Shown here: piece after piece, positions 11,028 to 63,020 of the stretch
Numbering within the stretch: position 1 is the stretch's first letter
How the letters are laid out: each line of letters starts with the position of its first letter
Assembly: GCA_035699805.1 (NCBI GenBank)
Contig: DASSPF010000147.1
Span: forward strand, 143 to 64,142
Direction: 5' to 3'
Length of the DNA stretch: 64,000 nucleotides
Origin: Candidatus Limnocylindria bacterium
Lineage (GTDB): Bacteria > Chloroflexota > Limnocylindria > P2-11E
Program-made: the position numbers and the translations under genes
The notes under the pieces: model-generated
What the model saw: only the letters and a program-made list of their open reading frames with translations
Told to the model about the DNA's origin: nothing
Databases searched by the model: none

Positions 11028-11717
11028 CTACACCTGCGGGTGGCCGACGGAAGGTCTGCGCACGAGGCCGAGGGCATAGGCCCGGAGCACGGCCTCCAGG
11101 CGTGAGTGGGTCTCGAGCTTCTCGATGATCATCTGCACGTGGCCGCGGACGGTGTTCACGGCCATCCCGGTCGCTTCCGCGATGGCCCGGGTGTCCAATC
11201 CCTGGCTCATGTGCTGGAGCACCTCGCGGTCCCGCGGCGTCAGTGCCGTAGCGAAGCGCTCGCGCTGGCGCCGCTCCGCCTCGCGGTCGCGCTGATGCTT
11301 CACCAGGCGCGCCAGGTCCTCCGCCGGGATCACGATCTCCCCGCGTGCGGCCCGCTCGAGAAGCCCCACGATCCTGCCGGTCGGCTCGCGCTTGGAGATG
11401 AAGCCCGCGACGCCCACCTCGAGCGCGGCGAGGAGGGTCTCGTCCGAGGCGTCGGCGGTGAACAGCACGACCGCGACGGAGCGCCCACTGTCGCGCAGCA
11501 GACGCGCGGCGTCGGTCCCGGCCCCGTCGGGGAGGTGCTGGTCCAGGAGCACGAGCTCGGCATCGCGCTCGCGCGCGAGCGCGACCGCTTCGGCGACGGT
11601 CCCCGCCGCGCCGACCACCGTGAGCGCGGTGCTGCGCGAGAGCAGCGCGACGAGCGCCTCGACCAGGAGCGGGTGATCGTCGACGATGAGCGTGCGTGCG
11701 GGTCGTGGATCGGTCAT
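11028..11717 (-). CDS. NarL/FixJ (LuxR)-family response regulator.
   Basis: REC domain 'LIVDDHPLLVE..LDQHLPDG' plus a LuxR helix-turn-helix 'LTPRDREVLQHMSQG...IAEATGMAVNTVRGH'. The start ATG at 11717 ('MTDPRP') was chosen over the 388-aa Arg-rich ORF extension. Confidence 0.8.
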   Translation of the reverse strand: MTDPRPARTLIVDDHPLLVEALVALLSRSTALTVVGAAGTVAEAVALARERDAELVLLDQHLPDGAGTDAARLLRDSGRSVAVVLFTADASDETLLAALEVGVAGFISKREPTGRIVGLLERAARGEIVIPAEDLARLVKHQRDREAERRQRERFATALTPRDREVLQHMSQGLDTRAIAEATGMAVNTVRGHVQMIIEKLETHSRLEAVLRAYALGLVRRPSVGHPQV

Positions 11718-12154
11718 GCGGGGCGCTCGTTGAGCAGCAGCCAGTAGGCACCCAGCTCGCTCACCGCCGCGACGAAACGCTCGAACTCGACCGGCTTGCG
11801 CACGTAGCTGTTCGCGCCGAGGTCGTAGCCGCGCAGCATGTCGCGCTCCTCGCTCGAGGACGTGAGGAGCACCACGGGGACCAGGCGGGTGCGCTCGTCG
11901 GCCCGGAGGCGCCGCAGCACCTCGAGACCGTCGACCTTCGGGAGCTTGATGTCGAGCAGAACGACGGCCGGGAGGTCGCGCGCGTCCCGGGCGGCGTGGG
12001 CGCCCGTCGCGAACAGGTAGTCGAGCGCCTCGGCGCCGTCGCGCGCGACGACCATCTCGTTGGCGAACCGGTGCCGGCCGAGGACGAGGAGCGTCAGCTC
12101 GAGGTCGTTGGGGTCGTCTTCGACGATCAGGATCGCACCCTTGCGCGCGTTCAT
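11714..12154 (-). CDS. Stand-alone CheY-like receiver-domain protein.
   Basis: 'ILIVEDDPNDLELT...VLLDIKLPKVDG...YVRKP', with no output domain. Its stop overlaps the downstream LuxR gene start in an ATGA. Confidence 0.8.
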   Translation of the reverse strand: MNARKGAILIVEDDPNDLELTLLVLGRHRFANEMVVARDGAEALDYLFATGAHAARDARDLPAVVLLDIKLPKVDGLEVLRRLRADERTRLVPVVLLTSSSEERDMLRGYDLGANSYVRKPVEFERFVAAVSELGAYWLLLNERPA

Positions 12155-12283
12155 GACCCACCCTCATCCGGGGACCGCTCGCTGTGCGGCTCACCCACCG
12201 TGCAAGGCTCGACCACGAGGGCTGGCGGCGCGATGGTCGTTCGTCACTTCCGGCATCCCCCCTTTGCAGGATGCTGTGCGTGA

Positions 12284-12925
12284 TCAGTCGAGCAGGCCCG
12301 CCGCCCGGGCGTGCGCCACGGCCTGGAGCTTGGAGTGCGCGTCGAGCTTCTCCAGGATGCTCTGGACGTGATGACGGACCGTGTTCACGCCGATGTCCAG
12401 GGTGTTCGCGATGGTCTTGTTGTCATCCCCGCGCGCGACGAGCCTCAGGACTTCCATCTCGCGGGCGGTCAGGGGAGGCGGTCCCACCTCCGGGTCGGGC
12501 CGCTCGATGAGCCGCAGCAGGCGGGAGAGCGTGTCCGCGGCGAAGAGCGTCTCGCCAGCGGCGGCGCGCCGGACCGCGTCGGCGATCACCGTGGCGGTGG
12601 CCGTCTTCACGATGTAGCCGGCCGCACCGGCCGACACCGCGGCAAGGAGCGCGTCATCGCTCGTGTCAGCGGAGAGCATGACGACGGCGATCCCCGGCCG
12701 GAGACCGCGGATCGCCTGCGCGGCGTCGGCGCCCGTACCGTCCGGCAGATGGTGATCCATGACCACCACATCGACCGCGTCCGCTTCGACGAAGCCGCGC
12801 GCATCTGCCACCGTCCGCACGGTCCCCACGACGGCCAGCCCGTCCTGCCGCTCGAGTGCGAGCTGCAGGCCCTCGGCCAGCACCTCGTGATCATCGACGA
12901 TGAGGACGCGGATCAGGTCGCTCAC
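12284..12925 (-). CDS. NarL/FixJ (LuxR)-family response regulator.
   Basis: 'VLIVDDHEVLAEGL...VVMDHHLPDGTG' REC plus a C-terminal LuxR helix-turn-helix 'LTAREMEVLRLVARGDDNKTIANTLDIGVNTVRHH'. Overlaps the upstream PAS kinase gene by 4 nt. Confidence 0.85.
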   Translation of the reverse strand: MSDLIRVLIVDDHEVLAEGLQLALERQDGLAVVGTVRTVADARGFVEADAVDVVVMDHHLPDGTGADAAQAIRGLRPGIAVVMLSADTSDDALLAAVSAGAAGYIVKTATATVIADAVRRAAAGETLFAADTLSRLLRLIERPDPEVGPPPLTAREMEVLRLVARGDDNKTIANTLDIGVNTVRHHVQSILEKLDAHSKLQAVAHARAAGLLD

Positions 12926-14871
12926 GCCGCGAGCGGGACCGTGATGCGGAACGTCGCACCCCTGCCCGGGCCGGGACTCTCGCCGGTGATCGCGCCGGCC
13001 TGCGCCTCCACGAGGAGGCGCGCCAGGTACAGTCCGAGGCCGATACCGGCCGCCGCGCGACGCCCCGGCGCGGTCCGCTCGTACTTGCGAAAGAGTCGGC
13101 CGGCGTCATCGGCCGTGAAACCGACGCCCTCGTCAGCGACCTCGATGACGCCCACGTCCGCGCCTCGGCGCACGGTGACCATCACGCTGCTCGTGGGTGC
13201 TGAGTACTTGAGCGCGTTCGACAAGAGGTTGTCGAGGGCACGCCCCATGTCCCGTGGATCGATGTGCGCCACGAGCGGCGTCGGCCCGGCGTCGATCGCG
13301 ATCCTTGCCACATCCGATCGACCGACCGCGTCGGTCACGATGCTCCGCAGGTCGAGCGCGCGCCGCTCGGTGTGACGCCCGCCACCCTCGAGCTGCCCGA
13401 TGGCCAGCAGATCCTCGGCGAGCGTGGCGAGGGCCTCCGCCTGCGCGCGGAGCGCGATGGCGGCCCGGCGATCCCGCTGGCCGAGGGCCGGCGAGCGGCT
13501 CAGGCCATCGGCGAGCATGCTCATCGCCGCGATGGGTGAGCGCACCTCGTGCGCGAGCAGGACCAGCGCTTCGTCGCGCCGCTCGGCGAGACGACGCTCT
13601 TGCTGTAGCAGGGCGTCGCGTCTGCGCTCGAACTCGGAGATGTCGTGGAAGAAGGCGATGACCTGGATCGTCCCGTCGGGCTCCACGCGCGGCGTGTAAC
13701 CGACCGAGATGGCCACGGTGTGGCCGGCCTTGTGGCGCCAGTGTGTCTCGTCACGGGCGCTGTGGCCTGACATGACCCGCGCGATCACCGTCTTCAGCCT
13801 GGGGTCGCCCGGGTCGACGCTCAGCAGGTCGGTGTGCTGGCCGATGATCTCCCCTTCGGTGTAGCCGAGGATGCGCTCTGCCGCGGCGTTCCAGCCGGTG
13901 ATGACGCGCTCGGATGTCAGGATCATGCCCTCGCTCGTGCTCGCGACCACCTCGCTCATGACCGCGGCGCGGGCCGCGAGCGCGCGCTCTGCCTCGAGGC
14001 GTCGACGGTCGGTCGTATCGGTGACGAAGATCGCGACGCCCTCGGCCGACGGGTAGGCGCGCCACTCCACGCTCCGCATGTCGTCCGCGTCCTCGCGGAC
14101 GGTGGCCACGCCCCGTTGGATGGCCGCGCGCACCAGACCGACGGGCACCACCGGGAGACCGGCGAGCGATCGCCCGACGAAGTCCTCCCGGCTCTTACCG
14201 GTGATCTCGAGCGCGCGGCGGTTCACGAACGCGCAGGTGCCGTCGCTGCGCAGCGCGATGAAGCCGTCGTTCACGTGATCGAGCAGCTCCTCGTACAGGG
14301 TGCGGCGGTCGGTCCGGCGGCGCTCCTCGGCCGCGCCCCGCTCCGCGGCCCGCTGCTCGGTGCGGTCGACCCCGACGGCGACCGCCCCTCCCGTGGCTGG
14401 ATCAGGGACGATGACCATGTCCAGCGCGCGACCGCGGAATTCGAGGGCAATGTGCTCGACCGCGCCCGCGAGCGCGCGCCGCGCCGCATCAGCGGTCCCC
14501 GGCAGGGTGGGCCGCTCCAGGACGGACTGCCCGATGCGGCTGCTCGAACGGATCCCGATCGTTTCCAGGGCCGAGCCGCGCAGGGACGTGATGACGCCTC
14601 TCTTGTCGATGCGAGAGACGAACACCGGGAGGATGCGGAGGATCTCCTCGAGCTCTCGGCCGCGCTCCGCGGTGGCGGTGATGGCCCGGAAGTGATACCG
14701 CGCGATGAGCAGGACGACCAAGCCGACGATGTACGTGCCGACGATGAGCGCAATAGCGTTGGACTCGAGCGCGAGAGCCAATGCGATCACGGGCGCGGTG
14801 AAGACCACCGCAAGGAGTGCGACCGAGAGGGCCTCCCCGGGTCGCAGGTGGCGTCGCAGCCATGGACGCAT
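12922..14871 (-). CDS. Multi-PAS sensor histidine kinase, membrane-anchored.
   Basis: Two N-terminal TM helices, several PAS-like segments, the H-box 'LLAHEVRSPIAAM', and the HATPase 'NLLSNALKYS...DEGVGF..GIGLGLYLA'. Confidence 0.8.
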   Translation of the reverse strand: MRPWLRRHLRPGEALSVALLAVVFTAPVIALALALESNAIALIVGTYIVGLVVLLIARYHFRAITATAERGRELEEILRILPVFVSRIDKRGVITSLRGSALETIGIRSSSRIGQSVLERPTLPGTADAARRALAGAVEHIALEFRGRALDMVIVPDPATGGAVAVGVDRTEQRAAERGAAEERRRTDRRTLYEELLDHVNDGFIALRSDGTCAFVNRRALEITGKSREDFVGRSLAGLPVVPVGLVRAAIQRGVATVREDADDMRSVEWRAYPSAEGVAIFVTDTTDRRRLEAERALAARAAVMSEVVASTSEGMILTSERVITGWNAAAERILGYTEGEIIGQHTDLLSVDPGDPRLKTVIARVMSGHSARDETHWRHKAGHTVAISVGYTPRVEPDGTIQVIAFFHDISEFERRRDALLQQERRLAERRDEALVLLAHEVRSPIAAMSMLADGLSRSPALGQRDRRAAIALRAQAEALATLAEDLLAIGQLEGGGRHTERRALDLRSIVTDAVGRSDVARIAIDAGPTPLVAHIDPRDMGRALDNLLSNALKYSAPTSSVMVTVRRGADVGVIEVADEGVGFTADDAGRLFRKYERTAPGRRAAAGIGLGLYLARLLVEAQAGAITGESPGPGRGATFRITVPLAA

Positions 14872-14940
14872 GTCCCACCCCGATCGCGCCAGCGGCCTCG
14901 ATTATCGTCCACGCATCCACGCCAAGGGGGATACGCCGGA

Positions 14941-16056
14941 CTATCGATACTCCTTTGTCTGTGTGGCGCTCCTCCGAACGACCTCCTCCAGCACGGTCAC
15001 GCCGATGCCGGGGCCGGTCGGGACCTTCATGGTCCCGTCGGGCTCGACGGTGAATGGCTCGCCGATGATCTCCGTCTCGAAGTAGCGCGCCGACGCGCTG
15101 ACGTCGCCGGGGAGCCGGAAGTTCGGGAGCGACGCGAGGTGCACGTTCGCCGCGCGCCCGATGCCCATCTCGAGCATGCCGCCGCACCACACGGGGATGT
15201 CGCGGTCCGCGCAGACGTCGTGGATGCGCTTCGACTCGGCGAGGCCGCCCACGCGGCCGGCCTTGATGTTGATCACCCGCGTCGCCCCGATCTCGATGGC
15301 CTTGCGCGCGTCCTCGGCCGAGTGGATGGATTCGTCCAGGCACACCGGTGTGAGGATGTGCTTCTGGAGCGTCGCGTGGTCGATGATGTCGTCCGCCGCG
15401 AGCGGCTGCTCCACCAAGAGCGGCGTGTACGCGTCGATGCGCTTGAAGAGCGGGGCGTCCGCGAGCGTGTACGCGGAGTTCGCGTCGAGCTGGAACGGCA
15501 GGTCGGGGAAGCGGTTGCGGATCGCCTCGGCCACGTGACCGTCCCAGCCGGGTTTGATCTTCACCTTCACGCGCTGGTAGCCGCCCTCGAGCTCCATCGC
15601 GATCTTCTCCAGGAGCGCCTCGACCGATGGCTGGATGCCGATGGCCACACCGCAGAGGATCCGGTCGCGCGTGCCGCCGAGCAGCTTCGCGAGCGGTGCA
15701 TCCGCCATCTTCGCGAAGAGGTCCCAGATCGCCATCTCGATCGTCGCCTTCGCCATGCGGTGGTCCTTTATCCAGGCCAGTGCCGAGCTGGTGTCGTGCG
15801 GACCCGCCAGGTCCGTCTTCAGGAGCTCGGGGATGGCGATCGCGTCGAGCAGCCACCAGACCGTCTCGGGCGTCTCGCCGGAGTACCACGGTGTCTCCGG
15901 CGCCACGCTCTCGCCCCAGCCGACCGCGCCCTGCGACTCGACACGCGCGATGACGCGCGTCTGATGGGTCTCGCGCGATCCGCTCGTCTCGTACGCGTGT
16001 TTGAGCGGGAGGCGGATGAGGAACAGCTCGACGCGCTCAAGCTTCATTCCCGTCAC
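14941..16056 (-). CDS. Enolase-superfamily o-succinylbenzoate synthase / N-succinylamino-acid racemase (MR/MLE family).
   Basis: 'KVKIKPGWD' and 'LDANSAYT..LVEQPL..D..LDES' are metal ligands and catalytic lysines typical of the OSBS/NAAAR subgroup. No other menaquinone-pathway genes were recognised in this 64-kb window. Confidence 0.75.
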   Translation of the reverse strand: MTGMKLERVELFLIRLPLKHAYETSGSRETHQTRVIARVESQGAVGWGESVAPETPWYSGETPETVWWLLDAIAIPELLKTDLAGPHDTSSALAWIKDHRMAKATIEMAIWDLFAKMADAPLAKLLGGTRDRILCGVAIGIQPSVEALLEKIAMELEGGYQRVKVKIKPGWDGHVAEAIRNRFPDLPFQLDANSAYTLADAPLFKRIDAYTPLLVEQPLAADDIIDHATLQKHILTPVCLDESIHSAEDARKAIEIGATRVINIKAGRVGGLAESKRIHDVCADRDIPVWCGGMLEMGIGRAANVHLASLPNFRLPGDVSASARYFETEIIGEPFTVEPDGTMKVPTGPGIGVTVLEEVVRRSATQTKEYR

Positions 16057-16074
16057 GGCCCTCCGTCCCTGATG

Positions 16075-16920
16075 TCATGCGTCGTCCGTGTCCACGGGCA
16101 GCTCGCGCCGCGGCTGGGGTACGAGCAGATACGCGCCGCGGCCATCCGCAGAGCGCAGGAACTCCACTGCCGCGTAGCCGTGACCGAAGCCGGCCTCGAA
16201 GGCCTCGCGTCCGGCCATGCGCCACGCGAGGGCCGCACCAGGGTCGGTCGCCTTGAGCTCCTGGAACCGTGGCGGGATCTCGAGCAGAAGATGCGTCTCG
16301 GCGGCGAAGTCCACCGCGCCGGGCCGCGCGCCGTCCGCGCGCAGCAGGTAGCGGACGCCCTCGCGCTCGGCGTCCTCGAGCGACGGGGCGCGATCCTCGC
16401 CCCGGAGGCGCTTGTACGTGCGGTCGTGGCCGATGGGCCACTCGACGTAGATGCGGTCCGATGGCAGACCGGCGTTCAGCTTGTCGGGCATCGCGCCGTA
16501 GAAGTCGCGGTGGTACTCGCGCGTGTACGCCCCGAGCTTGGCGAAGTTGAACGCCGCGTTGCGCGCCTCGAGCGGGTCCATGGTCCAGCCGACGATCTCG
16601 ATGCCCTGGTCCAGGCAGTGATCCCGCTGCGCCTCTTTCAGCTCGCGCGCCAGCGTGGTGCCGCGGTAGGGGGTCCGCACCGCGAGCATGTGCGAGTGGT
16701 GCCGGAAGTGGTAGTCGCGGATCCCGAGGAAGCCGAAGACGAAGCCGGCGGCCGCCGGATCCCCCTCGGCGTACCCGAGGGCCACGAAGCCGCCGTTGTG
16801 CGCCGCCGCCAGCATGAGCTGCGGCGGGACGATCACGTCGCCACTCCACACCTCCTCCTGGATGGCGACGGTCGCGCTGCAGGAGGCGATGTCAGTCGCC
16901 ACCTCGATACGGAACGGCAT
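16075..16920 (-). CDS. GNAT-family acyltransferase with a C-terminal extension (candidate N-succinyl/acetyl-transferase partner of the racemase).
   Basis: GNAT motif-A-like 'LEARNAAFNFAKLGA'. The ATG at 16920 ('MPFRIEV') was chosen over the 325-aa ORF. It lies 19 nt upstream of the OSBS/NSAR gene on the same strand. Confidence 0.55.
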   Translation of the reverse strand: MPFRIEVATDIASCSATVAIQEEVWSGDVIVPPQLMLAAAHNGGFVALGYAEGDPAAAGFVFGFLGIRDYHFRHHSHMLAVRTPYRGTTLARELKEAQRDHCLDQGIEIVGWTMDPLEARNAAFNFAKLGAYTREYHRDFYGAMPDKLNAGLPSDRIYVEWPIGHDRTYKRLRGEDRAPSLEDAEREGVRYLLRADGARPGAVDFAAETHLLLEIPPRFQELKATDPGAALAWRMAGREAFEAGFGHGYAAVEFLRSADGRGAYLLVPQPRRELPVDTDDA

Positions 16921-17017
16921 GCTGGCGCGCAGTATCAGGCGTTGGGGGCCCAGCCGCCGGGTGTCGGCCGGGCGAGCAGGCCCGTGCGAGCGACGGGGCC
17001 ATGAGCGACGCGATACC

Positions 17018-17470
17018 ATGCCGCGCGTGGTAGGGAAGACCGAGTTCCTCAAGCGCGTGTCCTGGTTCGAGGATCTCGACCAGAAGTCGCTCGACGCGAT
17101 CGCGAATTCGGCGGTCGAGCAGTCGTACCAAGCGGGCCAGGAGATCGTCCGTCAGGGTGACACGGGTGTCGGCGCGTTCATCATCCGCTCGGGGAAGGTC
17201 GACATCGTCCAGGAGAAGGACGGCAAGGAGACCACGCTCGCCACGCTCGGCGAGGGCGACGTCTTCGGCGAGATGGCGCTGCTGGACGAGTTCCCGCGCT
17301 CGGCGACAGTGCGCGCGCTCGAGCCGACCACCGTGCTCGGCATCCAGCGCTGGCACTTCAAGGGGATCCTCGAGAGCCACCCGCAGCTCGCGCTTGCGCT
17401 GTTGCCCATCCTCACACGCCGCATCCGCGCCGCCGAGGGAACGCTCCCGCACCACGCCGCGCGGCACTAG
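17018..17470 (+). CDS. Stand-alone cyclic-nucleotide-binding (cNMP) domain protein, with no DNA-binding domain.
   Basis: 'FGEMALLD..PRSATVRA' is the CAP/cNMP phosphate-binding cassette. Only 150 aa. The start ATG at 17018 is in frame with the ORF at 16796. Confidence 0.7.
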   Translation: MPRVVGKTEFLKRVSWFEDLDQKSLDAIANSAVEQSYQAGQEIVRQGDTGVGAFIIRSGKVDIVQEKDGKETTLATLGEGDVFGEMALLDEFPRSATVRALEPTTVLGIQRWHFKGILESHPQLALALLPILTRRIRAAEGTLPHHAARH

Positions 17471-17502
17471 ACCCGCCTCGCGCTACTCCGCCCCGTCCTG
17501 CC

Positions 17503-19058
<1,556 letters not shown>

Positions 19059-19062
<4 letters not shown>

Positions 19063-20057
19063 GAGATCGCCTCCACGCGGTACGCGTCCACCGGCGTCCG
19101 CCGTCCCTTGAGCTCGAGCGAGCCGAGCGGAGTCGCGGCGACGCCGGGACCGGCAGCCGTGAGCGCGGCGCTGGAACAGATCACCTCGCCCGCCTTGGCC
19201 TGCGACTGGAGGCGTGCCGCGACGTTCACCGTGTCGCCGATGGCGGTGAAGTTCTGGTACTCGTCGCTTCCCAGATTCCCGACCATCGCCTCGCCGGTGT
19301 GCACGCCCACACCGTACCCCAGCTCGGTTCCCGCGCCCTGCGCCGCATCCCGCATCGCGAGCGCGCCCACCAGGGCCAGCCGCGCGTGATCGGGCTGCTC
19401 GGCGGGCGCGTTCCAGAGCGCCAGGATGGCGTCGCCGGCGAAGCGGTCGATGGTCCCACCGTGGCCGCGGATCGCCTTTGCCGCCGCCCCGTGATAGCGG
19501 AGCAGCAGGCTCACCACGCGGTCCGGCGGAAGCGCCTCGGCCATCGTGGTGTAGCCGCGCACGTCGGCGTGCAGCACGCTCACGGTCTGGGTGCGGCCTC
19601 CGACGTCCACGAAGGAGGGCCGTGCGTCGACCATCTCCGCCACGTTCTCGCCGAGGTAGCGGCGGAGCGCATCGCGAAGCCGCCCCTGATCCTCTTCGAG
19701 CTTCTCCAGCTTGGGTGACGAGGTGTCCTCGTCCGCGACGAACACCACGCCGGTGACCGCACCGCGGCCGTCGCGCAGCGGGCCGGCCGTCGCGCGGAGC
19801 TTCGCGCGCCGTCCGTCGGGCAGCGTCGCCTCGATGGTCCGGACGTCATTCCGCGTGCCGCGCAGGACCAGCGAGAAGACCCGCGACGAGAGCGAGGGTC
19901 CGAAGACCTCGGTGTACGGCTTCCCGACCGCGTCCGCCTCGGTGGTGGAGAGCAGCCGCAGCGCGTTGCGGTTGAGCGAGCGGATCCGCCCTTCCGTGTC
20001 CATGAGCACCACGCTCGATGGGTTGAACTGCAAGAGCGCGAAGCTCATGCCCTGCAC
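19059..20057 (-). CDS. PAS-domain class III adenylate/guanylate cyclase.
   Basis: N-terminal PAS, then 'VLHADVRGYTTMAE...FAGDAILALW..VGVHTGEAMVGNLGS'. It shares a 4-nt overlap with the downstream kinase gene. Confidence 0.8.
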
Positions 20058-22781: not shown

Positions 22782-23516
22782 CTAGATGGGCGTGTCGATG
22801 AGCAGGAGCTCGCTCTCGGCCTGCGCGCGGAGCTCCAGCGCCCCACTGCCCGTGACGTACGCGGCGTCACCGGTGGTCATGCGCTCGCCGTTCGCGGCGA
22901 GGATCCCCGAGATCAGATAGAGGTAGCCGCCGCGGCCGGCACCGAACTCGTGCGTCACGGTGCGCGTCCGGCCAAGGCGCGACGCGTACATCGACACATC
23001 CTGCGCCACGGTGACGCCCTCCCCGTCAGTACCCTCCGGCTTCAGGAAGCGCAGCAGCCGGTCGGTCCGGTCGGCCATGGTGTACTGCCGCTGCTCGACC
23101 GACGGCGCCAGACCGCGCGCCCACGGGAGGATCCACATCTGGACGAACTGCATCTCCTCGGTGGTCGAGTGGTTCCCCTCGGAATGCTGCGCACCCGTGC
23201 CGAGCCGCATGCGCTGCACACCGCCCGGGAGGAGCACGCCGCCGTTGCCGAGGCTGTCGGCGTGCTCGAACTCGCCGGAGACGACGTAGGTGATCCCCTC
23301 GATGTCCCGGTGCGGGTGCATCGGCCACACCGCGCCCGGGATGAGCGTGTCGTGGTTCAGGACGCGGAGGTATCCGATCCCCATGTGCGCGCCGTCGCGG
23401 TACTGGTCGAACGAGAAGTGCCAGCGCGCCCGGAACCAGCCGCCCTGCGCGGAGAAGATGGAGCGGTCCGGTCGCAGACGCAGCGGGGCCACCGTCACCT
23501 CATCAGGATGCCGCAT
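22782..23516 (-). CDS. Pirin-family bicupin protein.
   Basis: 'HPHRDIEGITYVVSGEFEHADS' cupin metal site, at typical pirin length. Confidence 0.75.
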   Translation of the reverse strand: MRHPDEVTVAPLRLRPDRSIFSAQGGWFRARWHFSFDQYRDGAHMGIGYLRVLNHDTLIPGAVWPMHPHRDIEGITYVVSGEFEHADSLGNGGVLLPGGVQRMRLGTGAQHSEGNHSTTEEMQFVQMWILPWARGLAPSVEQRQYTMADRTDRLLRFLKPEGTDGEGVTVAQDVSMYASRLGRTRTVTHEFGAGRGGYLYLISGILAANGERMTTGDAAYVTGSGALELRAQAESELLLIDTPI

Positions 23517-23583
23517 CGCACCCCGCAGCGACGTGCCGCCGCCCTGACGGGCGGCGGCACCTCGCTGAAGGAGATGGACGGTG

Positions 23584-25089
23584 CTACGGCGCGGTGATGA
23601 AGAACGCCCAGCGGAAGATCGGCATCTTCTCTCCGGGGTGGTCGTCGAGCGCGGTCAGCTGCGGCATCTTGTAGTTGGCCGGCCGCTTCTCCTCGCCCTG
23701 GTAGATGCCGGGGTACATGTCGATGTAGTGCCATCCGGGGGCACCGGACATCGTGAGGAAGATCGTGAGGTCGCCCTTGCTCTGGAAGGCGCAGGCGTAC
23801 CCGGCGAAGGCGTTGTCCACGACCACGTGGTAGATCTGCTCGGTCTCGGTCCAGCCGACGCCCTTGAGGTGCAGCGTCGTCTTCGTCCCCGCGGGTCCGC
23901 GATCGACCGAGAGCGGGAAGGCGTTGGCGAGGATGTACACGCTCGTCGTGGCGACCTCCTTGTCCGCGATCTTGGCGGTCACCTTGTGCAGGCCGCCCAG
24001 ATCGTCGGGCATCGTGAAGGCCCAGGCGAACGCGCCGGTCCCATCCGTCTTCACCTTGGCGAGAGAGGCGGTGCGCTCCTCGAACCCGGTGACGGATCGG
24101 TTACCGACCTGTGTGGTCCAGAAGAGCTCGACGTCGCTATTCGCGGGTAGGGCCTTTGCGTTCAGGGTCATGGCCGTCCCGACGGTCGCACCGTACGGTG
24201 CGCTCCAGATGCCCTGCGACACCGGCTTCGCCGCGATCGTGCTGAAGCCCTGCTGCGCGGCTGATGTCGGCATGACGGCCGGTCCCTCGGTCACCGTGAA
24301 CGGAAGGTGCGGGAACGGACGGGATGCGACCACCGGCTGCTGGTTCGGGTTCATGTACGGCGCGCCGAACTCGCTGTGGCCCAGCGTGACGATGTGCGTC
24401 CCGACGCTCCCCGTAGCGGGGATGACGAACTTCGCGTATCCGTCGGTCGTGATCGACGAGACCCAGCCGGTGTACGCATTGTCGTACGCGAGCTGGAAGC
24501 TGTTCTGGTACGACTGGTAGCCGATGCCCTTCACCTCGACGGTGATGGGTGTGCCGACCGGTCCGCTCGTCGGCGTGATCGTCGTGACCATGTCGACGTC
24601 GAAGAGGCTCTTGTTGCGGATGATCTTCTGTTCATCGATGACCATGACGTCGTGCGCGTAGCCGAAGCCACGTGGCACGGCGAAGGTGGTCGTGAACGCG
24701 CCGGTCGTGTCGGTGGTGACGCTCTTCAGGGCCTGCTGGATGGTCTTCGCGTCGCGACCGACGTACTTGCTCCGGTCCTCCGAGAGCTTCCACTGCACCT
24801 TGCCGGTGCTCCACACGAGGTCGTACTTGGTGGAGGCCTTGAGACCGGACGCCGCCGCCGTGACGGAGGTGTCCCACGGTCCGCTCTTGGGCTCGAGGGA
24901 GAACTTGCCGACGATCTCCATCGCCTGCTGCGAGGCCGTGGCCGCGGGTGCCGCTGCGGCCGGCTGCGACGCTTTCGCGGTCGCAGCCGGCGCGCTCGGT
25001 GTGCTCGTGCTCGGGGTGCTGCAGGCCGCCGCGAGCGCCGCGGCGGCAAGCGTGATCGCCAGTCGCCTGAGGTGCTCGTGGCGTGCCAT
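23584..25089 (-). CDS. Large Thr/Ser-rich lipoprotein built from repeated Ig-like/IPT-like beta-sandwich modules, function unknown.
   Basis: Signal peptide plus lipobox 'LAAAC' at the ATG at 25089. Internal repeats 'Y/FDL.W.T....V....TD.TGAF...F..P...G..H.V'. No CxxCH, Fe-S or type-1 copper motif. Last gene of the NrfCD-like operon. Confidence 0.65.
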   Translation of the reverse strand: MARHEHLRRLAITLAAAALAAACSTPSTSTPSAPAATAKASQPAAAAPAATASQQAMEIVGKFSLEPKSGPWDTSVTAAASGLKASTKYDLVWSTGKVQWKLSEDRSKYVGRDAKTIQQALKSVTTDTTGAFTTTFAVPRGFGYAHDVMVIDEQKIIRNKSLFDVDMVTTITPTSGPVGTPITVEVKGIGYQSYQNSFQLAYDNAYTGWVSSITTDGYAKFVIPATGSVGTHIVTLGHSEFGAPYMNPNQQPVVASRPFPHLPFTVTEGPAVMPTSAAQQGFSTIAAKPVSQGIWSAPYGATVGTAMTLNAKALPANSDVELFWTTQVGNRSVTGFEERTASLAKVKTDGTGAFAWAFTMPDDLGGLHKVTAKIADKEVATTSVYILANAFPLSVDRGPAGTKTTLHLKGVGWTETEQIYHVVVDNAFAGYACAFQSKGDLTIFLTMSGAPGWHYIDMYPGIYQGEEKRPANYKMPQLTALDDHPGEKMPIFRWAFFITAP

Positions 25090-25124
25090 GTTCTCTCTTC
25101 CTTTCCGTGTGCTCGGTCTCGCGC

Positions 25125-25721
25125 TTACTGCCGGGGGTAGTCCTGGCCGGCGGCCGTGATGATCAGCTGCGCTGCGGCGACCTTGAACTGGTCGAAGACG
25201 CCGACGGCGCCCTCCACGCTCTTGGCCTCGATCTTCACGTTGAATGCGCCCGTCGGATAGTCCGCCGGGACCGTGAAGCCGACCGCCCAGAGGAAGTCCT
25301 GCGGCGCTTCCTTGGTGCCGCCGTGCGGCCCGTACTTGAAGTTGTCGGTCTTGCCGTCCGGGTACGTGATGGTGAACGACGCGATCTGCTTGTCGTCCAG
25401 GTACTTGCCGGTGACCGGGTCGAGCGCCTTCATGCGCCAGACGATCCGGCCCGTCTGCGGGAAGCGGCTCTGCTGCGTGCAGTGGATGCCCGGTGCGGTG
25501 ATGAGCTTCTCCGTCGGGTTGAGGCCGAGGTTCCCTCGGATCGTGTCGCCGACGATGACGAGCTGCTTCGCCAGCACGAGCGGAGTGGCGGTCGCCGCCG
25601 GAGCCTGGGTCTTCGCGGCTGTGGTCGGTGAGGCTGCTCCCTCGCCGGTCGTGCCGCCGCAGGCCGCGGCCACGAAGAGGGCTGCGATGCAGGATGCGAG
25701 GATGCGCGTGCGTATGGTCAT
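25125..25721 (-). CDS. Small lipoprotein, function unknown.
   Basis: Lipobox 'VAAAC'. 198 aa, single Cys/His pair ('GIHCT', 'GPHGG'). Overlaps the upstream membrane-protein gene by 4 nt. Confidence 0.6.
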   Translation of the reverse strand: MTIRTRILASCIAALFVAAACGGTTGEGAASPTTAAKTQAPAATATPLVLAKQLVIVGDTIRGNLGLNPTEKLITAPGIHCTQQSRFPQTGRIVWRMKALDPVTGKYLDDKQIASFTITYPDGKTDNFKYGPHGGTKEAPQDFLWAVGFTVPADYPTGAFNVKIEAKSVEGAVGVFDQFKVAAAQLIITAAGQDYPRQ

Positions 25722-26404
25722 GCGGTATCCACCTTTCTTGATGTGTCACGCGCGCCGCCGATGACGCCGCGCGCTGTGCCAAAGAGCGCGAATGCGATGA
25801 GGCTCCAGACGAGGAGCACGAGGATCCCGACCGCGTAGGGGACGCGATCGCTGAACGTGGCGAGAGCCGAGGGCTCAAAGCGCGGTGCGGGCGCCGACAC
25901 GGTCGCGTCGAATGACAGACGTCCCTCGCTGGCGATGATCGCGCCCTGCCTGGGTGAACGCGCCACGATCTGGTGCGAGCCCGTTCGTGCCGGCAGGTAG
26001 CCGAGGGTCGCACTGCCACGCCCGTCGGTCGTGGCGTCGCCGAGGTGCATCTCTCTGGTGCCGAAGAGGTCGACGAGCTCGTAGAAGGCGACCGGCGTGT
26101 TCGTCAGTGCCTTGCCGTCAGGTGCGACGAGGATCGCCTCGAGCGCGTACCCCTGCTCGGCCTTCTCGAGCGGTCGCACCACGACACGGACCCGCGCGGC
26201 GCTCGCCGGCGGGTCGACGACCGGCTTTGGCGCGAGGCCGAGGCCCGATCCCCGGGTCTCGATGTGAGCGGCAGGCGGGGCGCTCGCCGTGATCGATCCG
26301 CCCGCCTGCAGACGAAGCCCGCTCGGCAGGAGGACCTGGCCGGGGCCGAGGAACATCACCACTGCCACCGTGGCGACGACAAAGGGGGCGAGCGCTCTGA
26401 TCAT
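25718..26404 (-). CDS. Bitopic membrane protein: N-terminal and C-terminal TM helices flanking a periplasmic beta-rich domain. Unknown function.
   Basis: ATG at 26404 ('MIRALAPFVVATVAVVMFLG') overlapping the NrfD stop in an ATGA. C-terminal TM 'VGILVLLVWSLIAFALFG'. Confidence 0.6.
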   Translation of the reverse strand: MIRALAPFVVATVAVVMFLGPGQVLLPSGLRLQAGGSITASAPPAAHIETRGSGLGLAPKPVVDPPASAARVRVVVRPLEKAEQGYALEAILVAPDGKALTNTPVAFYELVDLFGTREMHLGDATTDGRGSATLGYLPARTGSHQIVARSPRQGAIIASEGRLSFDATVSAPAPRFEPSALATFSDRVPYAVGILVLLVWSLIAFALFGTARGVIGGARDTSRKVDTA

Positions 26405-27735
26405 TCCCCCGCGCCCTCCGCGTACACCGGAGTGAGGACGACACCACGCGGCTGCGGTGGCCCCTCGACCTCCTCCATCTCGTGGACCGACATCACCGGG
26501 AAGAAGCGGAAGAAGATGATCAGGATCAGCGGGATGGCCGCGGCCGAGCCGATCGTGATCGTGATCTCGACCCACGTCGGCGCGTAGCGGCCCCAATCCC
26601 AGGGCATCGCCGGCTCGGCCATGCCCGGCACGACGATGAGGAACCGCTTGAGCCACATCCCCGCGATCACCAGCGCGGATGCCGTGCACGCGCGCGCGAT
26701 CACGAAGCGACCCGGCCACGCCGCCAGCACGAGCGGGAAGATCAGTCCGATCGTCGTGAAGGACCAGAACGCCGGCGCGTAGCTCCCGACGAAGATGGCT
26801 TCCAGCAGCGGAGCGGTCGTCTCGTCGGCGAGGTAACCCTCGGTGAGGTACTCGCTCACCATGAAGTACAGATATGCGACGCCGAGGGCGATCATGAGAT
26901 ACGACAGGTAGCGGAAGTGTTTCGCGGTGATGAACTCCGCAAGACCGTAGACCCTGCGGAATGCGGCCACCACCAGGATCACCGCCGCGACCCCCGAGAG
27001 CATCGCCGCCAGCACGAAGAGCGGCGCGAAGATCGTGCTATGCCATCCGCCTCGCGCCGTGACCGCGAAGAGCCACGCCAGGACGGAGTGCACCGAGACC
27101 GCGAGGGGGATGATGAGCACGGCCATCACGCCGATCCCACGCTGGAGCGAGGCCTCCTGGCCCGGCGTGCCCCGCCAGCCGAGCGAAAGGATGCCGTAGA
27201 GACGCTTGAGCGGTCCGCCGCGCATCGATGCGCCGGTCGTGGCGAGGTCGGGGATGAGCGGCAGGTAGAGGAAGACGAGGCTCGCGACCATGTACGTGCT
27301 GATCGCAACGACGTCCCACACCACCGGCGACCCGACCTGCGGGTGCAGCAGGATGTTGAGGAAGCGATCGGGGCGGCCGAGGTCGATGATCGGGTAGACC
27401 GCGCCCACGAGCAGGGCCGCGACCGCGGTGGCCTCGGCGAGACGGGTGAGCGGAGCGCGCCACTTGGCGTTGGTGAGCCGGAGGATCGCGCTCGTCATGG
27501 CGCCGCCGTAGCTGATGCCGATGAAGAAGACGCAGTTGATGATGTAGAAGCCCCAGGACACCCGCTGGTTCAGGCCCGTCACCCACAGACCGCGCTGGAC
27601 CTGGTAGACCCACGCGTACAGCCCAGCTCCCACGAGGAGAGAGAGCGCCACGACCGCGATCCAGAAGTTCCGGTCGCCGCGGCCGATGGGCCACATGGCG
27701 CGCTCGACGTAACGGTCGTGCGTTCGACGGTCCAT
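26401..27735 (-). CDS. NrfD/PsrC-family polytopic membrane quinol-dehydrogenase subunit.
   Basis: About 10 TM helices. The start 'MDRRTHDRYVERAMWPIGRGDRNFW' sits 3 nt after the Fe-S subunit stop. Family-typical size (444 aa). Confidence 0.7.
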   Translation of the reverse strand: MDRRTHDRYVERAMWPIGRGDRNFWIAVVALSLLVGAGLYAWVYQVQRGLWVTGLNQRVSWGFYIINCVFFIGISYGGAMTSAILRLTNAKWRAPLTRLAEATAVAALLVGAVYPIIDLGRPDRFLNILLHPQVGSPVVWDVVAISTYMVASLVFLYLPLIPDLATTGASMRGGPLKRLYGILSLGWRGTPGQEASLQRGIGVMAVLIIPLAVSVHSVLAWLFAVTARGGWHSTIFAPLFVLAAMLSGVAAVILVVAAFRRVYGLAEFITAKHFRYLSYLMIALGVAYLYFMVSEYLTEGYLADETTAPLLEAIFVGSYAPAFWSFTTIGLIFPLVLAAWPGRFVIARACTASALVIAGMWLKRFLIVVPGMAEPAMPWDWGRYAPTWVEITITIGSAAAIPLILIIFFRFFPVMSVHEMEEVEGPPQPRGVVLTPVYAEGAGE

Positions 27736-27737
27736 GC

Positions 27738-28502
27738 TCACTGCTCCAGCAGCTGACCGTGGCCGGCGATGTACCAGACGCGCGGGCCGGTCCCGAGGTC
27801 TTCCTTGTAGCGGAACGCGTCGTTCTCCTTGAGGAAGGTGGAGAGGCGCACGGTCTCCTCGCCGTTCGTCGCGACGTCCTCGATCAGGTCCCCGATGTAG
27901 ATCGCGCCCATGCCGCAGGCCTCGACGCACGCCGGCAGCTGGCCCTCGTCGGTGCGGTGGACGCAGAACATGCACTTGCCGACGGTCCCCTGCTGCTGCG
28001 GGACCGGGAACTGCGGCGTGGCCTTGCCGAACGGATTCGCGTATGCGGGCGGCTCGACGTAGTTGAAGTAGCGCGCGCCGTACGGGCAGGCCGCCATGCA
28101 CATCCGGCAGCCGATGCAGCGCTCCTGATCGACGAGCACGACGCCTTCGCCGTCCTTGTACGTCGCGGCCACCGGGCAGACACGCAGACACGGGGCGTTC
28201 TCGCACTGGAAGCACGGTCGCGGCATGAAGTACGCGGCGCCGTGCTTGTCCTTGACCTCGAAGACCTTGATCCACTCGAAGTTCGCCGGCAGGTGATGCG
28301 TCTCCTGGCACGCCTCCGTGCAGGCCTTGCAGCCGTCGCACCGACGCAGGTCAATGACCATCGCCCACTGCCTTTGTGTCTTGTTCGTGTCAGCGGCGAG
28401 GGCCTCCGGGAAGGCCATCGGCACGAATCCCGCGGCGAGCGCCGTGCCGCCCACGGTCCCGAGGGTCCCGAGGAGCTGACGTCGCGTGAACGGTCCGGCC
28501 AT
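27738..28502 (-). CDS. Tat-exported 4Fe-4S ferredoxin-type subunit (NrfC/PsrB/HybA-like).
   Basis: Twin-arginine signal 'TRRQLLGTLGTVGGTALAAG'. Four Cys clusters ('CDGCKACTEAC', 'CFQCENAPCLRVCP', 'CIGCRMCMAACP', 'CMFCVHR..C..AC'). Confidence 0.8.
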   Translation of the reverse strand: MAGPFTRRQLLGTLGTVGGTALAAGFVPMAFPEALAADTNKTQRQWAMVIDLRRCDGCKACTEACQETHHLPANFEWIKVFEVKDKHGAAYFMPRPCFQCENAPCLRVCPVAATYKDGEGVVLVDQERCIGCRMCMAACPYGARYFNYVEPPAYANPFGKATPQFPVPQQQGTVGKCMFCVHRTDEGQLPACVEACGMGAIYIGDLIEDVATNGEETVRLSTFLKENDAFRYKEDLGTGPRVWYIAGHGQLLEQ

Positions 28503-28503
28503 G

Positions 28504-28600
28504 CCCGCAGAGTCGCGCTGAGACGTTGCTGAGAGAAGGACCGAACGACCCACCTGAGGGGTCCGCATGGCAGGTTCACCTGAGAGGCGATTGAGAGAGG
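28504..28600. promoter_or_regulatory. Divergent promoter region between the OmpR-family regulator gene and the NrfC-like operon, containing five TGAGRG-type direct repeats.
   Basis: 'cTGAGAcg', 'cTGAGAGaagg', 'cTGAGGGg', 'cTGAGAGgcg' and 'tTGAGAGagg' are spaced at roughly 10-25 bp. Confidence 0.35.
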
Positions 28601-28609
28601 CTTCGGGCG

Positions 28610-29305
28610 ATGGTGGCAGAGGAATACCGGGCGCGCGTCCTCGTCGTGGACGACGAGGAAGGCGTCACGAGCGTGATCGAGCGAGCCCTCCAGCGCGAGG
28701 GCTACGACGTGGCCGTCGCGAACGACGCGGTGGCCGCCCGTGAGCAGGTCTCATCCTTCCGGCCCGACGCCCTGGTCCTCGATGTCGTCATGCCGGGTAC
28801 GGACGGAGTCGCCCTCTGCCGCGAGCTCCGCGCCGATCGACCCGATGTCGGCATCCTCATGGTCACCGCGCGCGACGCGGCGAGCGATCAGGTCACCGGG
28901 CTCGACGCCGGCGCGGACGACTACCTCGTCAAGCCCTTCAGCCTCCAGGTCCTTGCCGCGCGCCTGCGCGCGGTGCTGCGGCGGCGCCAGCCGCATGCCG
29001 AAGTGCTCACTGCGGGTGACCTCGAGCTCGACACCGCGAGCCGGCGCGCGAAGCGCGGCACTCGAGAGATCCCCCTCACCGGGACCGAGTACCGCCTCCT
29101 GTCCCACCTCATGCGCGCTGCCGGTCATCCCATCCCCAAGCGCGAGCTGACCCAGCGCGTCTGGGGCTATGACTTCGAGGGGAACGACAACGTCCTCGAG
29201 GTCTACATCGCCTACCTGCGCACGAAGCTGGAGGCCCACGGCGAGGCGCGCATCATCCACACGCTGCGCGGCGTCGGCTACGAGCTCCGTCCGCTCGAGC
29301 CGTGA
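28610..29305 (+). CDS. OmpR/PhoB-family response regulator.
   Basis: REC 'VLVVDDEEGV..LVLDVVMPGTDG' plus a winged-helix 'LTGTEYRLLSHLM...VLEVYIAYLRTKL'. Confidence 0.85.
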   Translation: MVAEEYRARVLVVDDEEGVTSVIERALQREGYDVAVANDAVAAREQVSSFRPDALVLDVVMPGTDGVALCRELRADRPDVGILMVTARDAASDQVTGLDAGADDYLVKPFSLQVLAARLRAVLRRRQPHAEVLTAGDLELDTASRRAKRGTREIPLTGTEYRLLSHLMRAAGHPIPKRELTQRVWGYDFEGNDNVLEVYIAYLRTKLEAHGEARIIHTLRGVGYELRPLEP

Positions 29306-30687
29306 GCCTCCGCCGGCGTCTTGCGATCTGGTACGGCGCGGTCGTCGCGATCGTCCTCGGAGCGTCGCTCACCATCGCGTACGTCCTGCACACCGATGCA
29401 CACGACTCCGATGTCGATCGCGCGTTGTTCGACCTCTCGACGCGCGCGCGGGAGACGGTCACCGCGCAGCTGGCGGGCGGCAGCCTCGACCTGGGCGTAC
29501 TGCATGCCACCATCGACGAGCCATACGGCGTCTGGCTGTTCTCGGGTGAGGCGGTGCTCGCGGCGACAGGGAGATCCGACGACGCGGCCTTTCGCGACGC
29601 GGGGCTCGCCGCGGTGCCCGACGGGTGGCACACCGGCTGGACCGTCGACGGTCGCGTGCGCAGCTACGCCGTCAGCATCCCCGCCGGCCGAGTCGTCACC
29701 GCCGCCGAGCTCTCGGCGATCGACGCGTCGAACGCGGAGCTGCGCTTCACGTACGTGCTGCTCGGGCTCCTGGGCGTCGGCATCGGTAGCGCGCTCGTCT
29801 CATCGGTCGCCGCGAGCGCGCTGCGACCCGTGGCCACGCTCACCGCCATGGCCCGAGAGATCGCGTCCTCACGCGACTTCCGCCGGCGCGTCGCGCTCGC
29901 GGGTGATCCCTATGACGAGCTCGTCGTGCTCGCCCGGACCTTCGACGCGATGCTCGCGAGCCTCGACGACGCCTATCGCCAGCAGCAGCGGTTCCTGAGC
30001 GACGTCTCGCACGAGCTGCGCACCCCCCTGACGGTCATCCGCGGGCATGCCGAGCTGCTCGCCACGAGCGACCGCGACGGGAGCGCTGGCGTCGACGCTG
30101 CCACCCACATCGTTCGCGAGACGGCACGTCTGGCCCGCCTCGTGGACGAGCTGCTCATCCTGGCTCGCTCGCAGGCGGCCGAGTCGTTCGTGGCGCGGGA
30201 GGTGTCGCTCGACGACGTCGTCATGGAGACATTCGACGAGATGCGCCCCCTCGCGGAGGGCCGGCTCCACGTGCGGTGGCTCGAACATGCCGTGGTGGGT
30301 GGGGAGCCGGACCGCCTGAAGCAGGTCGTGCTCGCACTGGTCGACAACGCGCTCCGCTACACGCCCGCCCCCGGACGCGTCGACATCTCGCTGAGCAACG
30401 ACGGCCACGATGCCGTGATCAGGGTCGAGGACGAGGGGATCGGTATCGATGTCGCCGACCTCCCTCGAGTGTTCGACCGCTTCTATCGCGCGGAGGGGGC
30501 GCGCCGGATGAATAGCGCGGGCAGCGGTCTCGGCCTGCCGATCGTGCGCTGGATCGTCGAGCGCCATGGCGGGTCGATCGAGCTTCAAGGCCGCCAGCGT
30601 GCGCGTGGCACCCTCGCGACGGTCCGTCTTCCGCTCGCGGCCACGTCCGCTCCGACGGAGGCGCGCGGCGCGGTCGCGACGCAGTAG
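29302..30687 (+). CDS. Sensor histidine kinase partner of the OmpR regulator.
   Basis: Two TM helices flanking a periplasmic domain, HAMP, the H-box 'SHELRTPLTVIRGHAELL', and the HATPase 'DNALRYTPA..DEGIGI..GSGLGL'. Overlaps the regulator gene by 4 nt. Confidence 0.85.
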   Translation: MSLRRRLAIWYGAVVAIVLGASLTIAYVLHTDAHDSDVDRALFDLSTRARETVTAQLAGGSLDLGVLHATIDEPYGVWLFSGEAVLAATGRSDDAAFRDAGLAAVPDGWHTGWTVDGRVRSYAVSIPAGRVVTAAELSAIDASNAELRFTYVLLGLLGVGIGSALVSSVAASALRPVATLTAMAREIASSRDFRRRVALAGDPYDELVVLARTFDAMLASLDDAYRQQQRFLSDVSHELRTPLTVIRGHAELLATSDRDGSAGVDAATHIVRETARLARLVDELLILARSQAAESFVAREVSLDDVVMETFDEMRPLAEGRLHVRWLEHAVVGGEPDRLKQVVLALVDNALRYTPAPGRVDISLSNDGHDAVIRVEDEGIGIDVADLPRVFDRFYRAEGARRMNSAGSGLGLPIVRWIVERHGGSIELQGRQRARGTLATVRLPLAATSAPTEARGAVATQ

Positions 30688-61202: not shown

Positions 61203-61215
61203 ACGCTTGAGGTCT

Positions 61216-63020
<1,805 letters not shown>

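Follow-up and report, generated by a model that had tools for sequence, protein, structure and literature searches.

NrfCD-type quinol modules have been catalogued by the catalytic partner with which they work. In NrfCD, PsrBC, DsrOP, QrcCD and NosGH, a four-cluster ferredoxin exported by the twin-arginine translocation (Tat) system and a membrane subunit of the NrfD family are encoded side by side and serve periplasmic partners, and in Alternative Complex III (ACIII) a periplasm-facing Fe-S wire likewise sits on an NrfD-type quinol site. Such modules run both ways in known complexes (Calisto & Pereira 2021, PMC8076601; Duarte et al. 2018, PMC6303296). Here, we analyse a five-gene operon on the minus strand (23584-28568) of a 64,000-nt stretch of DNA from a soil genome of Candidatus Limnocylindria bacterium (Chloroflexota; GenBank assembly GCA_035699805.1, contig DASSPF010000147.1, positions 143 to 64,142), hereafter the window, which has a G+C content of about 70%. 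The operon joins an input module of a known kind, encoded by nrfC-like and nrfD-like genes, to a partner set (p228, p198 and p501) with no motif for haem, molybdenum or nickel and no recognisable one for copper. Pfam, NCBIfam, the Protein Data Bank (PDB) and the searchable literature describe neither this partner set nor the p198/p501 family. The p198/p501 pair, which other bacteria combine with other quinol-oxidising proteins, is probably an end-station of a new type, serving respiration or detoxification. The five genes are, in order of transcription:

27738..28568, minus strand: NrfC/PsrB-type Tat-exported ferredoxin with four [4Fe-4S]-type Cys groups, 276 amino acids (aa) from the first ATG
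26401..27735, minus strand: NrfD-family integral membrane quinol/quinone subunit, ActC-like, 444 aa
25718..26404, minus strand: p228, a bitopic, Cys-free protein with one immunoglobulin (Ig)-like extracytoplasmic domain
25125..25721, minus strand: p198, a lipoprotein with lipobox VAAAC and a single beta-sandwich domain, the small partner of a pair
23584..25089, minus strand: p501, a lipoprotein with lipobox LAAAC and four beta-sandwich domains, the large partner of the pair

All five are real coding frames, as judged from their G+C content at third codon positions (GC3), which is 0.83-0.92 throughout. The nrfC-like and nrfD-like genes are 2 nt apart, the nrfD/p228 and p228/p198 junctions are ATGA overlaps, and p501 follows p198 after a 35-nt spacer that contains a good ribosome-binding site (GGAAAGGAAGAG). 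Translational coupling of the three downstream genes, which had been proposed in the initial annotation of this DNA, is thus borne out at the two overlaps, while p198 and p501 are near each other without overlapping.

The NrfC-like protein matches Fer4_11 (73.6 bits, E 1.6e-20) and its 16 Cys fall into four groups (CxxCxxCxxxC, CxxCx4CxxxCP, CxxCxxCxxxCP and CxxCx12CxxxC). Its N-terminus (FTRRQLLGTLG, with the twin-arginine motif TRRQLLG) is followed by a hydrophobic stretch and then ALA, a Tat signal judged by eye against the S/T-R-R-x-F-L-K consensus. This combination of Cys groups, fold and signal places it among the beta-subunits of complex iron-sulphur molybdoenzymes (NrfC/PsrB-type). Since its homologues are 256-262 aa long, the true start may be an internal ATG at about 28505. 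On NCBIfam models the protein scores 204 bits for DsrO, 154 for TtrB, 144 for QrcC and 140 for NrfC, and it matches the ArrB model too; in the PDB, it matches ArrB (6cz7_B, E 1e-35), PsrB (2vpw_B) and the C-terminal Fe-S part of ActB (residues ~670-960 only). The NrfD-like subunit, which is encoded by the sole NrfD gene in the operon, belongs to the NrfD/PsrC family by a full-length match to PF03916 (138.8 bits, E 4e-40, profile positions 1-310 of 313). When searched against all solved structures, its relatives at E<1e-3 are ActC chains of ACIII only (6f0k_C with 213 bits and E 7e-62, 6lod_C, 8k9e_C and 6btm_C; range E 1e-54 to 7e-62), and PsrC does not reach that threshold. The initial annotation was therefore right in recognising a Tat-exported four-cluster Fe-S protein paired with an NrfD-family protein, although its PsrC/NrfD label for the latter is better replaced by ActC-like, and the input module is, judging from these matches, best described as an ActB2/ActC-like pair.

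As had been predicted, the three downstream products are a bitopic protein of 228 aa, whose Ig-like domain is flanked by two hydrophobic segments (an N-terminal signal/anchor and a C-terminal transmembrane helix), and two lipoproteins of 198 and 501 aa with lipoboxes. Profile searches, which confirmed PF03916 and Fer4_11 in the input module, leave these three proteins without a family beyond a weak, sub-threshold IPT/TIG match of p501 in Pfam: p228 has zero matches in Pfam, NCBIfam or the PDB, and p198 and p501 have no relatives in these databases, PDB sequence and profile searches being empty. The architecture of p501 is a two-domain unit (MG-like plus IPT/TIG) that has been internally duplicated. 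Structure prediction for p198 used Limnocylindria sequences only, and homology between p198 and p501 was rejected because hhalign matched only their signal peptides. There are 1400 close homologues of p501 at 54-97% identity (Limnocylindria), every source-named one of which is 'hypothetical', and clustering at 50% gives 617 representatives, with full-length relatives down to about 27% identity. A Pfam search for fusions in 36 diverse p501 relatives and 10 longer ones found nothing beyond TIG or generic Ig domains and a single stalk domain, Cu_amine_oxidN1.

Across 36 p501 sequences (25-75% identity), C433 is invariant and H146, H232, H368, H454 and D483 are at least 90% conserved; when the two repeats are aligned, H146 lies opposite H368 and H232 opposite H454, so that these His are pseudo-symmetric. 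In a 24-sequence cross-phylum alignment of p198, C81, H133 and W145 are invariant (H133 is substituted in a more distant homologue, from locus L088). The invariant Cys and near-invariant His of p501, with the invariant Cys, His and Trp of p198, make a metal site likely, and this pattern looks like that of an enzyme more than that of a stalk. Export signals in the family point the same way, since they are mostly Sec-type signal peptides or lipoboxes (canonical Tat motifs occur in a few), so that any cofactor would normally have to be taken up outside the cytoplasm, which favours a metal ion. The initial annotation had called the three proteins free of cofactor motifs, which is correct to the letter, since CxxCH, Cys clusters and the type-1 copper motif C-x(2-4)-H-x(2-4)-M are all absent from p228, p198 and p501, but p501 and p198 do have the invariant and near-invariant residues given above. 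None of the three matches the Cupredoxin or Copper-bind models of Pfam, and they are not cupredoxins by this measure. The P19/Tp34, CopC, YcnI, PCuAC and DOMON/EB_dh families were likewise tried and rejected, with no match in Pfam and NCBIfam searches of p198 and p228 or in Pfam searches of the 36 p501 relatives.

The p228 protein is probably an adaptor subunit. It has 69 homologues (all three with a source name are from Limnocylindria, and one bears Big_3_5), and its position is filled by a 186-232-aa gene in all loci of the NrfCD type. In locus L088 (3442-4350), the p228 homologue has an extra N-terminal Cupredoxin_1 domain with the classic type-1 copper ligand set (H...C-x2-H-x2-M, CSIHNAM), followed by the Ig domain and C-terminal transmembrane helix common to p228.

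How widespread is this system, and what donates electrons to it? A scan of one genome per species yielded 286 stretches with confirmed p501 relatives, the best 80 of which were fetched as loci, and further loci (L-numbers) came from single-protein look-ups. Relatives of p501 range over Chloroflexota, Actinomycetota, Bacillus, Alpha- and Betaproteobacteria, Gemmatimonas and Phycisphaerae, and two haloarchaeal members were found separately from the 286 stretches. Almost everywhere, p198 lies directly upstream of p501, and this holds even for a remote homologue from a cultured strain, Bacillus sp. FJAT-29814. The five-gene order seen in the window is kept across Limnocylindria (L001-L024), Dehalococcoidia (L047), Acidimicrobiia (L054 and L086), a Firmicutes-labelled metagenome-assembled genome (MAG; L030) and the distant L088, where the cupredoxin-bearing p228 homologue stands third (NrfC-NrfD-X-p198-p501), with NrfD identities down to 46-55% across classes and phyla.

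The donor, on the other hand, can be swapped. Of the 64 loci whose upstream DNA extends for 3.5 kb or more, 23 have NrfC and NrfD together with a p228-like gene of 186-232 aa before the pair, and these 23 comprise all Limnocylindria loci with enough flank as well as the Dehalococcoidia, Acidimicrobiia and Firmicutes-labelled loci. In another seven, all alphaproteobacterial, a NapC/NirT tetrahaem quinol dehydrogenase (TIGR02161, 259 bits) is encoded directly upstream of p198. These NapC proteins share 61-71% identity, so the seven genomes are not near-identical. As in the NapC/NirT-dependent reductases (Nap, Nir, Tor and the Nrf-H type), the dehydrogenase gene is in the usual donor position, but the next enzyme is p198/p501 rather than NapAB, NirS, TorA or NrfA, and the first gene is often rquA. 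The gene for RquA, the methyltransferase of rhodoquinone biosynthesis (NF038261, 270 bits against a cut-off of 175), comes just before NapC in four of the seven, with intergenic gaps of -3 to 65 nt, and no published link of rquA with a NapC-type quinol dehydrogenase was found in the searchable literature. Elsewhere, a class I cytochrome c gene comes directly after p198 on the same strand with a gap of 23-24 nt (L052 and L074), or p198 is preceded by an open reading frame (ORF) that has a CNSCH in its C-terminal part (L043). The p198/p501 pair is an autonomous module, which is without a dedicated donor in about half of the loci.

Several arrangements of the pair deserve mention in their own right. 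The rquA-NapC-p198-p501 order, with its short or overlapping junctions, occurs in uncultured soil Alphaproteobacteria (L046, L058, L070 and L079, at about 7.8-11.4 kb in each), together with which L036, L042 and L053 were noted. In one alphaproteobacterial MAG (L033, 6312-11377), the module is in tandem (p198, p198, p501, p198, p501). In L031 and L039, labelled Stellaceae, and in L032 and L040, labelled only Alphaproteobacteria, p501 directly follows a gene for the chromate transporter ChrA with a 16-34-nt gap (at about 3765 in L031, 1091 in L039 and 10001 in both L032 and L040), and no p198 gene is detectable near p501 in these four loci. Finally, Bacillus sp. FJAT-29814 (GCA_001510715.1; L084, 7308-9512) has a p198-like/p501-like pair (WP_066308821.1) as a stand-alone bicistron, with a PAS-HisKA_3/GerE two-component system 4 kb upstream, and this pair could serve as an experimental entry point.

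In some subclades of Limnocylindria the operon has copper-linked company. Upstream of nrfC in L001 (720-6516), and apparently in the same operon, there are genes for a cupredoxin, DsbD_TM, YtkA-like, NifU_N, Ferric_reduct plus FMN_bind, ApbE, a GerE-type regulator and a second cupredoxin, which looks like an electron-transfer cluster of the extracytoplasmic flavinylation type joined to the five-gene unit; the cupredoxin beside nrfC matches the EfeO and CopI models weakly. A multicopper oxidase with a Tat signal is encoded directly after p501 in L014 (11688-12614) and nearby in L015 (8977-10128) and L022 (3661-4779), and proteins with a PCYCGC motif are encoded near the operon in L015, L017 and L018.

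In the window, the operon is flanked by the following features:

28610..30687, plus strand: divergent two-component system found with Pfam, made of an OmpR-type regulator (28610-29305) and a HAMP/HisKA sensor kinase (29302-30687)
23526..23567, minus strand: GC-rich hairpin between p501 and the pirin gene (minimum free energy -51.7 kcal/mol, z -6.25)
22782-23516, same strand as the operon: pirin/quercetinase-like cupin gene, 3' of the hairpin

None of 200 shuffled sequences folds as well as the hairpin 3' of p501, which is likely a transcript end or stabiliser and was missed by a consensus terminator scan because it has no T-tract. The position of the pirin gene, which is kept in at least eight related Limnocylindria loci (L004-L007, L009, L010, L012 and L021), may reflect either read-through from the operon or mere synteny. 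On the other side, genes of coenzyme A biosynthesis lie beyond the two-component system. The OmpR/histidine kinase pair, which the initial annotation regarded as dedicated, is indeed present and divergent, but its position is kept only in the window's subclade (L005, L006, L008, L009, L010 and L016), other subclades having HisKA_3/GerE pairs instead, and the idea of a redox-sensing complex has gained no specific support. Three long antisense ORFs with high GC3 opposite p501, p198 and p228 (23864-24520, 24686-25159 and 25973-26587, plus strand) are the usual shadow ORFs of high-GC DNA, which a naive gene caller based on length or GC3 takes over the real genes. Further away, 6217-20057 is rich in signalling genes, encoding a HAMP histidine kinase, a PAS-GGDEF-EAL-receiver protein, response regulators, a PAS histidine kinase, a Ser/Thr kinase with a PPC domain and a PAS adenylate/guanylate cyclase, and a second cyclase-AAA_16 protein is encoded at 57960-61325.

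Within these boundaries, as the initial annotation had it, no catalytic partner is encoded. Molybdopterin, hydrogenase and c-type cytochrome genes are absent from the operon and from the scanned ORFs of the window: no molybdopterin enzyme, hydrogenase or NosZ was found among ten large ORFs (eight of at least 597 aa and two of 462-543 aa), and no CxxCH in the GC3-supported ORFs that were called and scanned, a set that missed some genes. The operon is thereby set apart from NrfCD, PsrBC, DsrOP, QrcCD and NosGH, since NrfA/B, a molybdenum-bis(pyranopterin guanine dinucleotide) (Mo-bisPGD) subunit, DsrMKJ, QrcAB and NosZ/NosC are all missing from it and from the scanned ORFs. The Mo-bisPGD reductases (Psr, Phs, Ttr, Arr and Dms) and NrfABCD were rejected on the same grounds, with no catalytic subunit between the hairpin and pirin gene at one end and the divergent two-component system at the other. 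DsrMKJOP was rejected too, because the neighbours are pirin, two-component and coenzyme A biosynthesis genes and the NrfD-like subunit scores 130 bits on the DsrP model, the cut-off of which is 350. The NrfC-like protein nevertheless passes the DsrO equivalog cut-off (204 against 200) though no other dsr gene is present, which is an annotation and naming hazard, as pipelines may label the protein a subunit of sulfate reduction.

One of the closest known systems is ACIII, with which the operon shares its membrane subunit (nearest ActC), an Fe-S subunit that aligns with the C-terminal Fe-S domain of ActB and, in related loci, cupredoxin partners reminiscent of auracyanin. Unlike ACIII, it is without pentahaem ActA, monohaem ActE, the molybdopterin-like domain ActB1, the second NrfD-like subunit ActF and the DUF3341 protein ActD, and three unrelated beta-sandwich proteins take the place of these subunits. 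Membership of ACIII was rejected since there is no CxxCH in the five proteins, the Fe-S subunit has 276 aa against about 1000 for ActB, and there is a single NrfD gene. The partner set is absent from the 2021 review of the NrfD family (PMC8076601), and no description of this cluster was found in the literature on NrfD-like clusters, rquA with NapC, Limnocylindria respiration or ACIII lacking subunits. The initial proposal of an undescribed electron-transfer complex, in which an orphan NrfCD pair works with novel periplasmic partners, is supported by gene neighbourhood, namely (i) the conserved five-gene order, (ii) the linkage to NapC and (iii) the copper domain of L088.

We hold, with middling confidence, that the operon encodes a membrane-bound, haem-free and molybdenum-free quinol:acceptor oxidoreductase made of two separable modules. 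By homology, the ActC-like NrfD subunit would bind menaquinol at the outer face of the membrane, and electrons would then run along the four Fe-S clusters that the Tat-exported NrfC-like protein carries, as they do in ACIII, Psr and Nrf. The Fe-S wire would deliver them to lipid-anchored p198/p501, presumably within a physical complex in which membrane-anchored, Ig-like p228 acts as adaptor, with a type-1 copper relay built into the p228 homologue of one lineage. As a new all-beta two-protein unit, p198/p501 would be the terminal module. A metal centre is most likely bound by the invariant Cys and the near-invariant His of the pair, and it would reduce a substrate of moderate-to-low potential outside the cytoplasm, while the whole would be expressed conditionally under the adjacent two-component system. 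Given the conserved His and Cys and the recurrence of copper genes, the leading guess for the cofactor is a centre of copper or another metal, with copper as the leading candidate.

Besides the conserved gene order, the enzyme-like conservation of p198/p501, the copper genes near the operon in other Limnocylindria and the heavy-metal sensor match of the window's kinase, two lines of evidence lead to this reading. First, the pair is found with donors of several kinds: two quinol dehydrogenases that are unrelated to each other, cytochromes c and a fused blue-copper domain. Such interchangeable donors are what one expects if the pair is a modular redox end-station, whereas envelope proteins that are neighbours by chance would hardly account for them, and we therefore read the operon in the window as a menaquinol:X oxidoreductase. 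Second, the linkage to rquA suggests that the pair needs a low-potential quinol and that electrons flow outwards. Menaquinone (about -74 mV) is the quinone of Chloroflexota, Actinomycetota and Bacillus, and the ubiquinone-using Alphaproteobacteria with NapC-p198-p501 carry rquA, the potential of rhodoquinone being -63 mV. This raises a bolder idea, which we put forward tentatively and rate short of an even chance, that p198/p501 are the catalytic core of an unrecognised class of extracytoplasmic metallo-oxidoreductases, a terminal reductase restricted to low-potential quinols, fed by menaquinol via ActC-like NrfCD in monoderm soil bacteria and by rhodoquinol via NapC in Alphaproteobacteria that have co-acquired rquA.

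A number of observations weigh against the oxidoreductase reading. The folds of p198 and p501 are generic beta-sandwiches without catalytic precedent in which no cofactor was identified, and p228 of the window, which has no Cys, cannot itself be a blue-copper relay. The copper-linked neighbours lie in other subclades, tblastn searches for a cupredoxin in the window gave chance-level matches only, and the metal-sensor match of the window's kinase (see below) falls under the family cut-off. Adjacency of RquA is confined to a handful of related MAGs. Finally, 34 of the 64 loci, including those of cultured Bacillus sp. FJAT-29814 and of a haloarchaeon, have no adjacent electron donor, which leaves room for a non-redox role of the pair.

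The strongest rival, although we consider it unlikely, is a metal-handling redox system in which p198/p501 are surface binders of Cu, Fe or a similar metal, the oxidation state of which is shifted by NrfCD or NapC for detoxification or uptake. A precedent would be FtrABCD/EfeUOB, where one or more periplasmic beta-sandwich metal-binding proteins, a cupredoxin and a membrane Fe-S/electron-transfer component are encoded together. Metals do recur around the pair: the best NCBIfam model for the window's kinase is a heavy-metal sensor kinase (TIGR01386, 205 bits, below the cut-off of 292), the L001 cupredoxin next to nrfC scores on EfeO/CopI models, the multicopper oxidase and PCYCGC genes adjoin the operon in several Limnocylindria, and p501 is found near ChrA (directly upstream, in Stellaceae), a cation diffusion facilitator (haloarchaeon) or an HMA P-type ATPase (7 kb off, in Bacillus), while His, Cys and Asp are among the conserved residues. 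Each of these metal-related neighbours is, however, weak or restricted to a single lineage, and no obvious Met/His-rich metal motif is present in the kinase's sensor domain. Unlike FtrABCD/EfeUOB, the operon includes no permease (Ftr1/EfeU or CopD), nor does it include an efflux pump, and p198, p228 and p501 show no match to P19, CopC, YcnI, PCuAC or EfeO models and no homology to EfeB. Moreover, an ActC-like and possibly energy-coupled quinol module, along with the linkage to RquA, is more typical of respiration.

The reverse flow of electrons, in which p198/p501 would oxidise an extracytoplasmic donor and NrfCD would reduce menaquinone as in Qrc, Hyd-2 HybAB and SoeABC, strikes us as quite unlikely. 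It is in keeping with the bidirectional NrfCD-type modules of known complexes, with the fact that NapC-family proteins can act as quinone reductases (e.g. cM552 of nitrifiers) and with the mostly aerobic, heterotrophic lifestyle of Limnocylindria. RquA beside NapC-p198-p501, however, suggests a low-potential quinol as the donor, and reduction of menaquinone needs a donor below about -74 mV, which would be unusual for a Sec-exported His/Cys metal protein.

We regard as very unlikely that the operon is a stripped-down ACIII, the ActB2/ActC-like pair being a quinol:cupredoxin (or other carrier) oxidoreductase of an aerobic chain, with p228, p198 and p501 as purely structural proteins in place of ActA, ActB1, ActD and ActE. 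Its appeal is that the NrfD subunit is nearest ActC, that some lineages encode a cupredoxin next door or as a fusion and that Chloroflexus ACIII reduces the blue-copper protein auracyanin. Yet, there is no cupredoxin gene in the window, invariant Cys and His are unexpected in pure scaffolds, and the occurrence of p198/p501 alone or next to NapC in many genomes from which the NrfCD pair is missing speaks for an autonomous function. As for sheer coincidence, with p198/p501 as non-redox envelope proteins (adhesin, S-layer-like or binding) and the partner of NrfCD encoded elsewhere, it is extremely improbable, because generic Ig/MG-like folds typical of surface proteins and the half of loci without a redox neighbour are set against overlapping genes of one operon kept across phyla, independent linkages to NapC/NirT, cytochrome c and a type-1 copper fusion, and a very high sequence conservation that is unlike that of adhesins.

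These findings have both practical and biological implications. With an NrfC that passes the DsrO cut-off and an ActC-like NrfD, automated reconstructions could wrongly credit Limnocylindria with Dsr or ACIII functions. If p198/p501 are indeed a terminal reductase driven by low-potential quinols, many bacteria of soil and groundwater, and some archaea, would have a new respiration for anaerobic or hypoxic conditions or else a detoxification pathway powered by quinol. Should the pair prove to be either a terminal reductase or an enzyme of metal redox chemistry, it would be an unrecognised electron sink in soil microbial metabolism and would provide a second dedicated use for rhodoquinone in free-living Alphaproteobacteria besides fumarate reduction.

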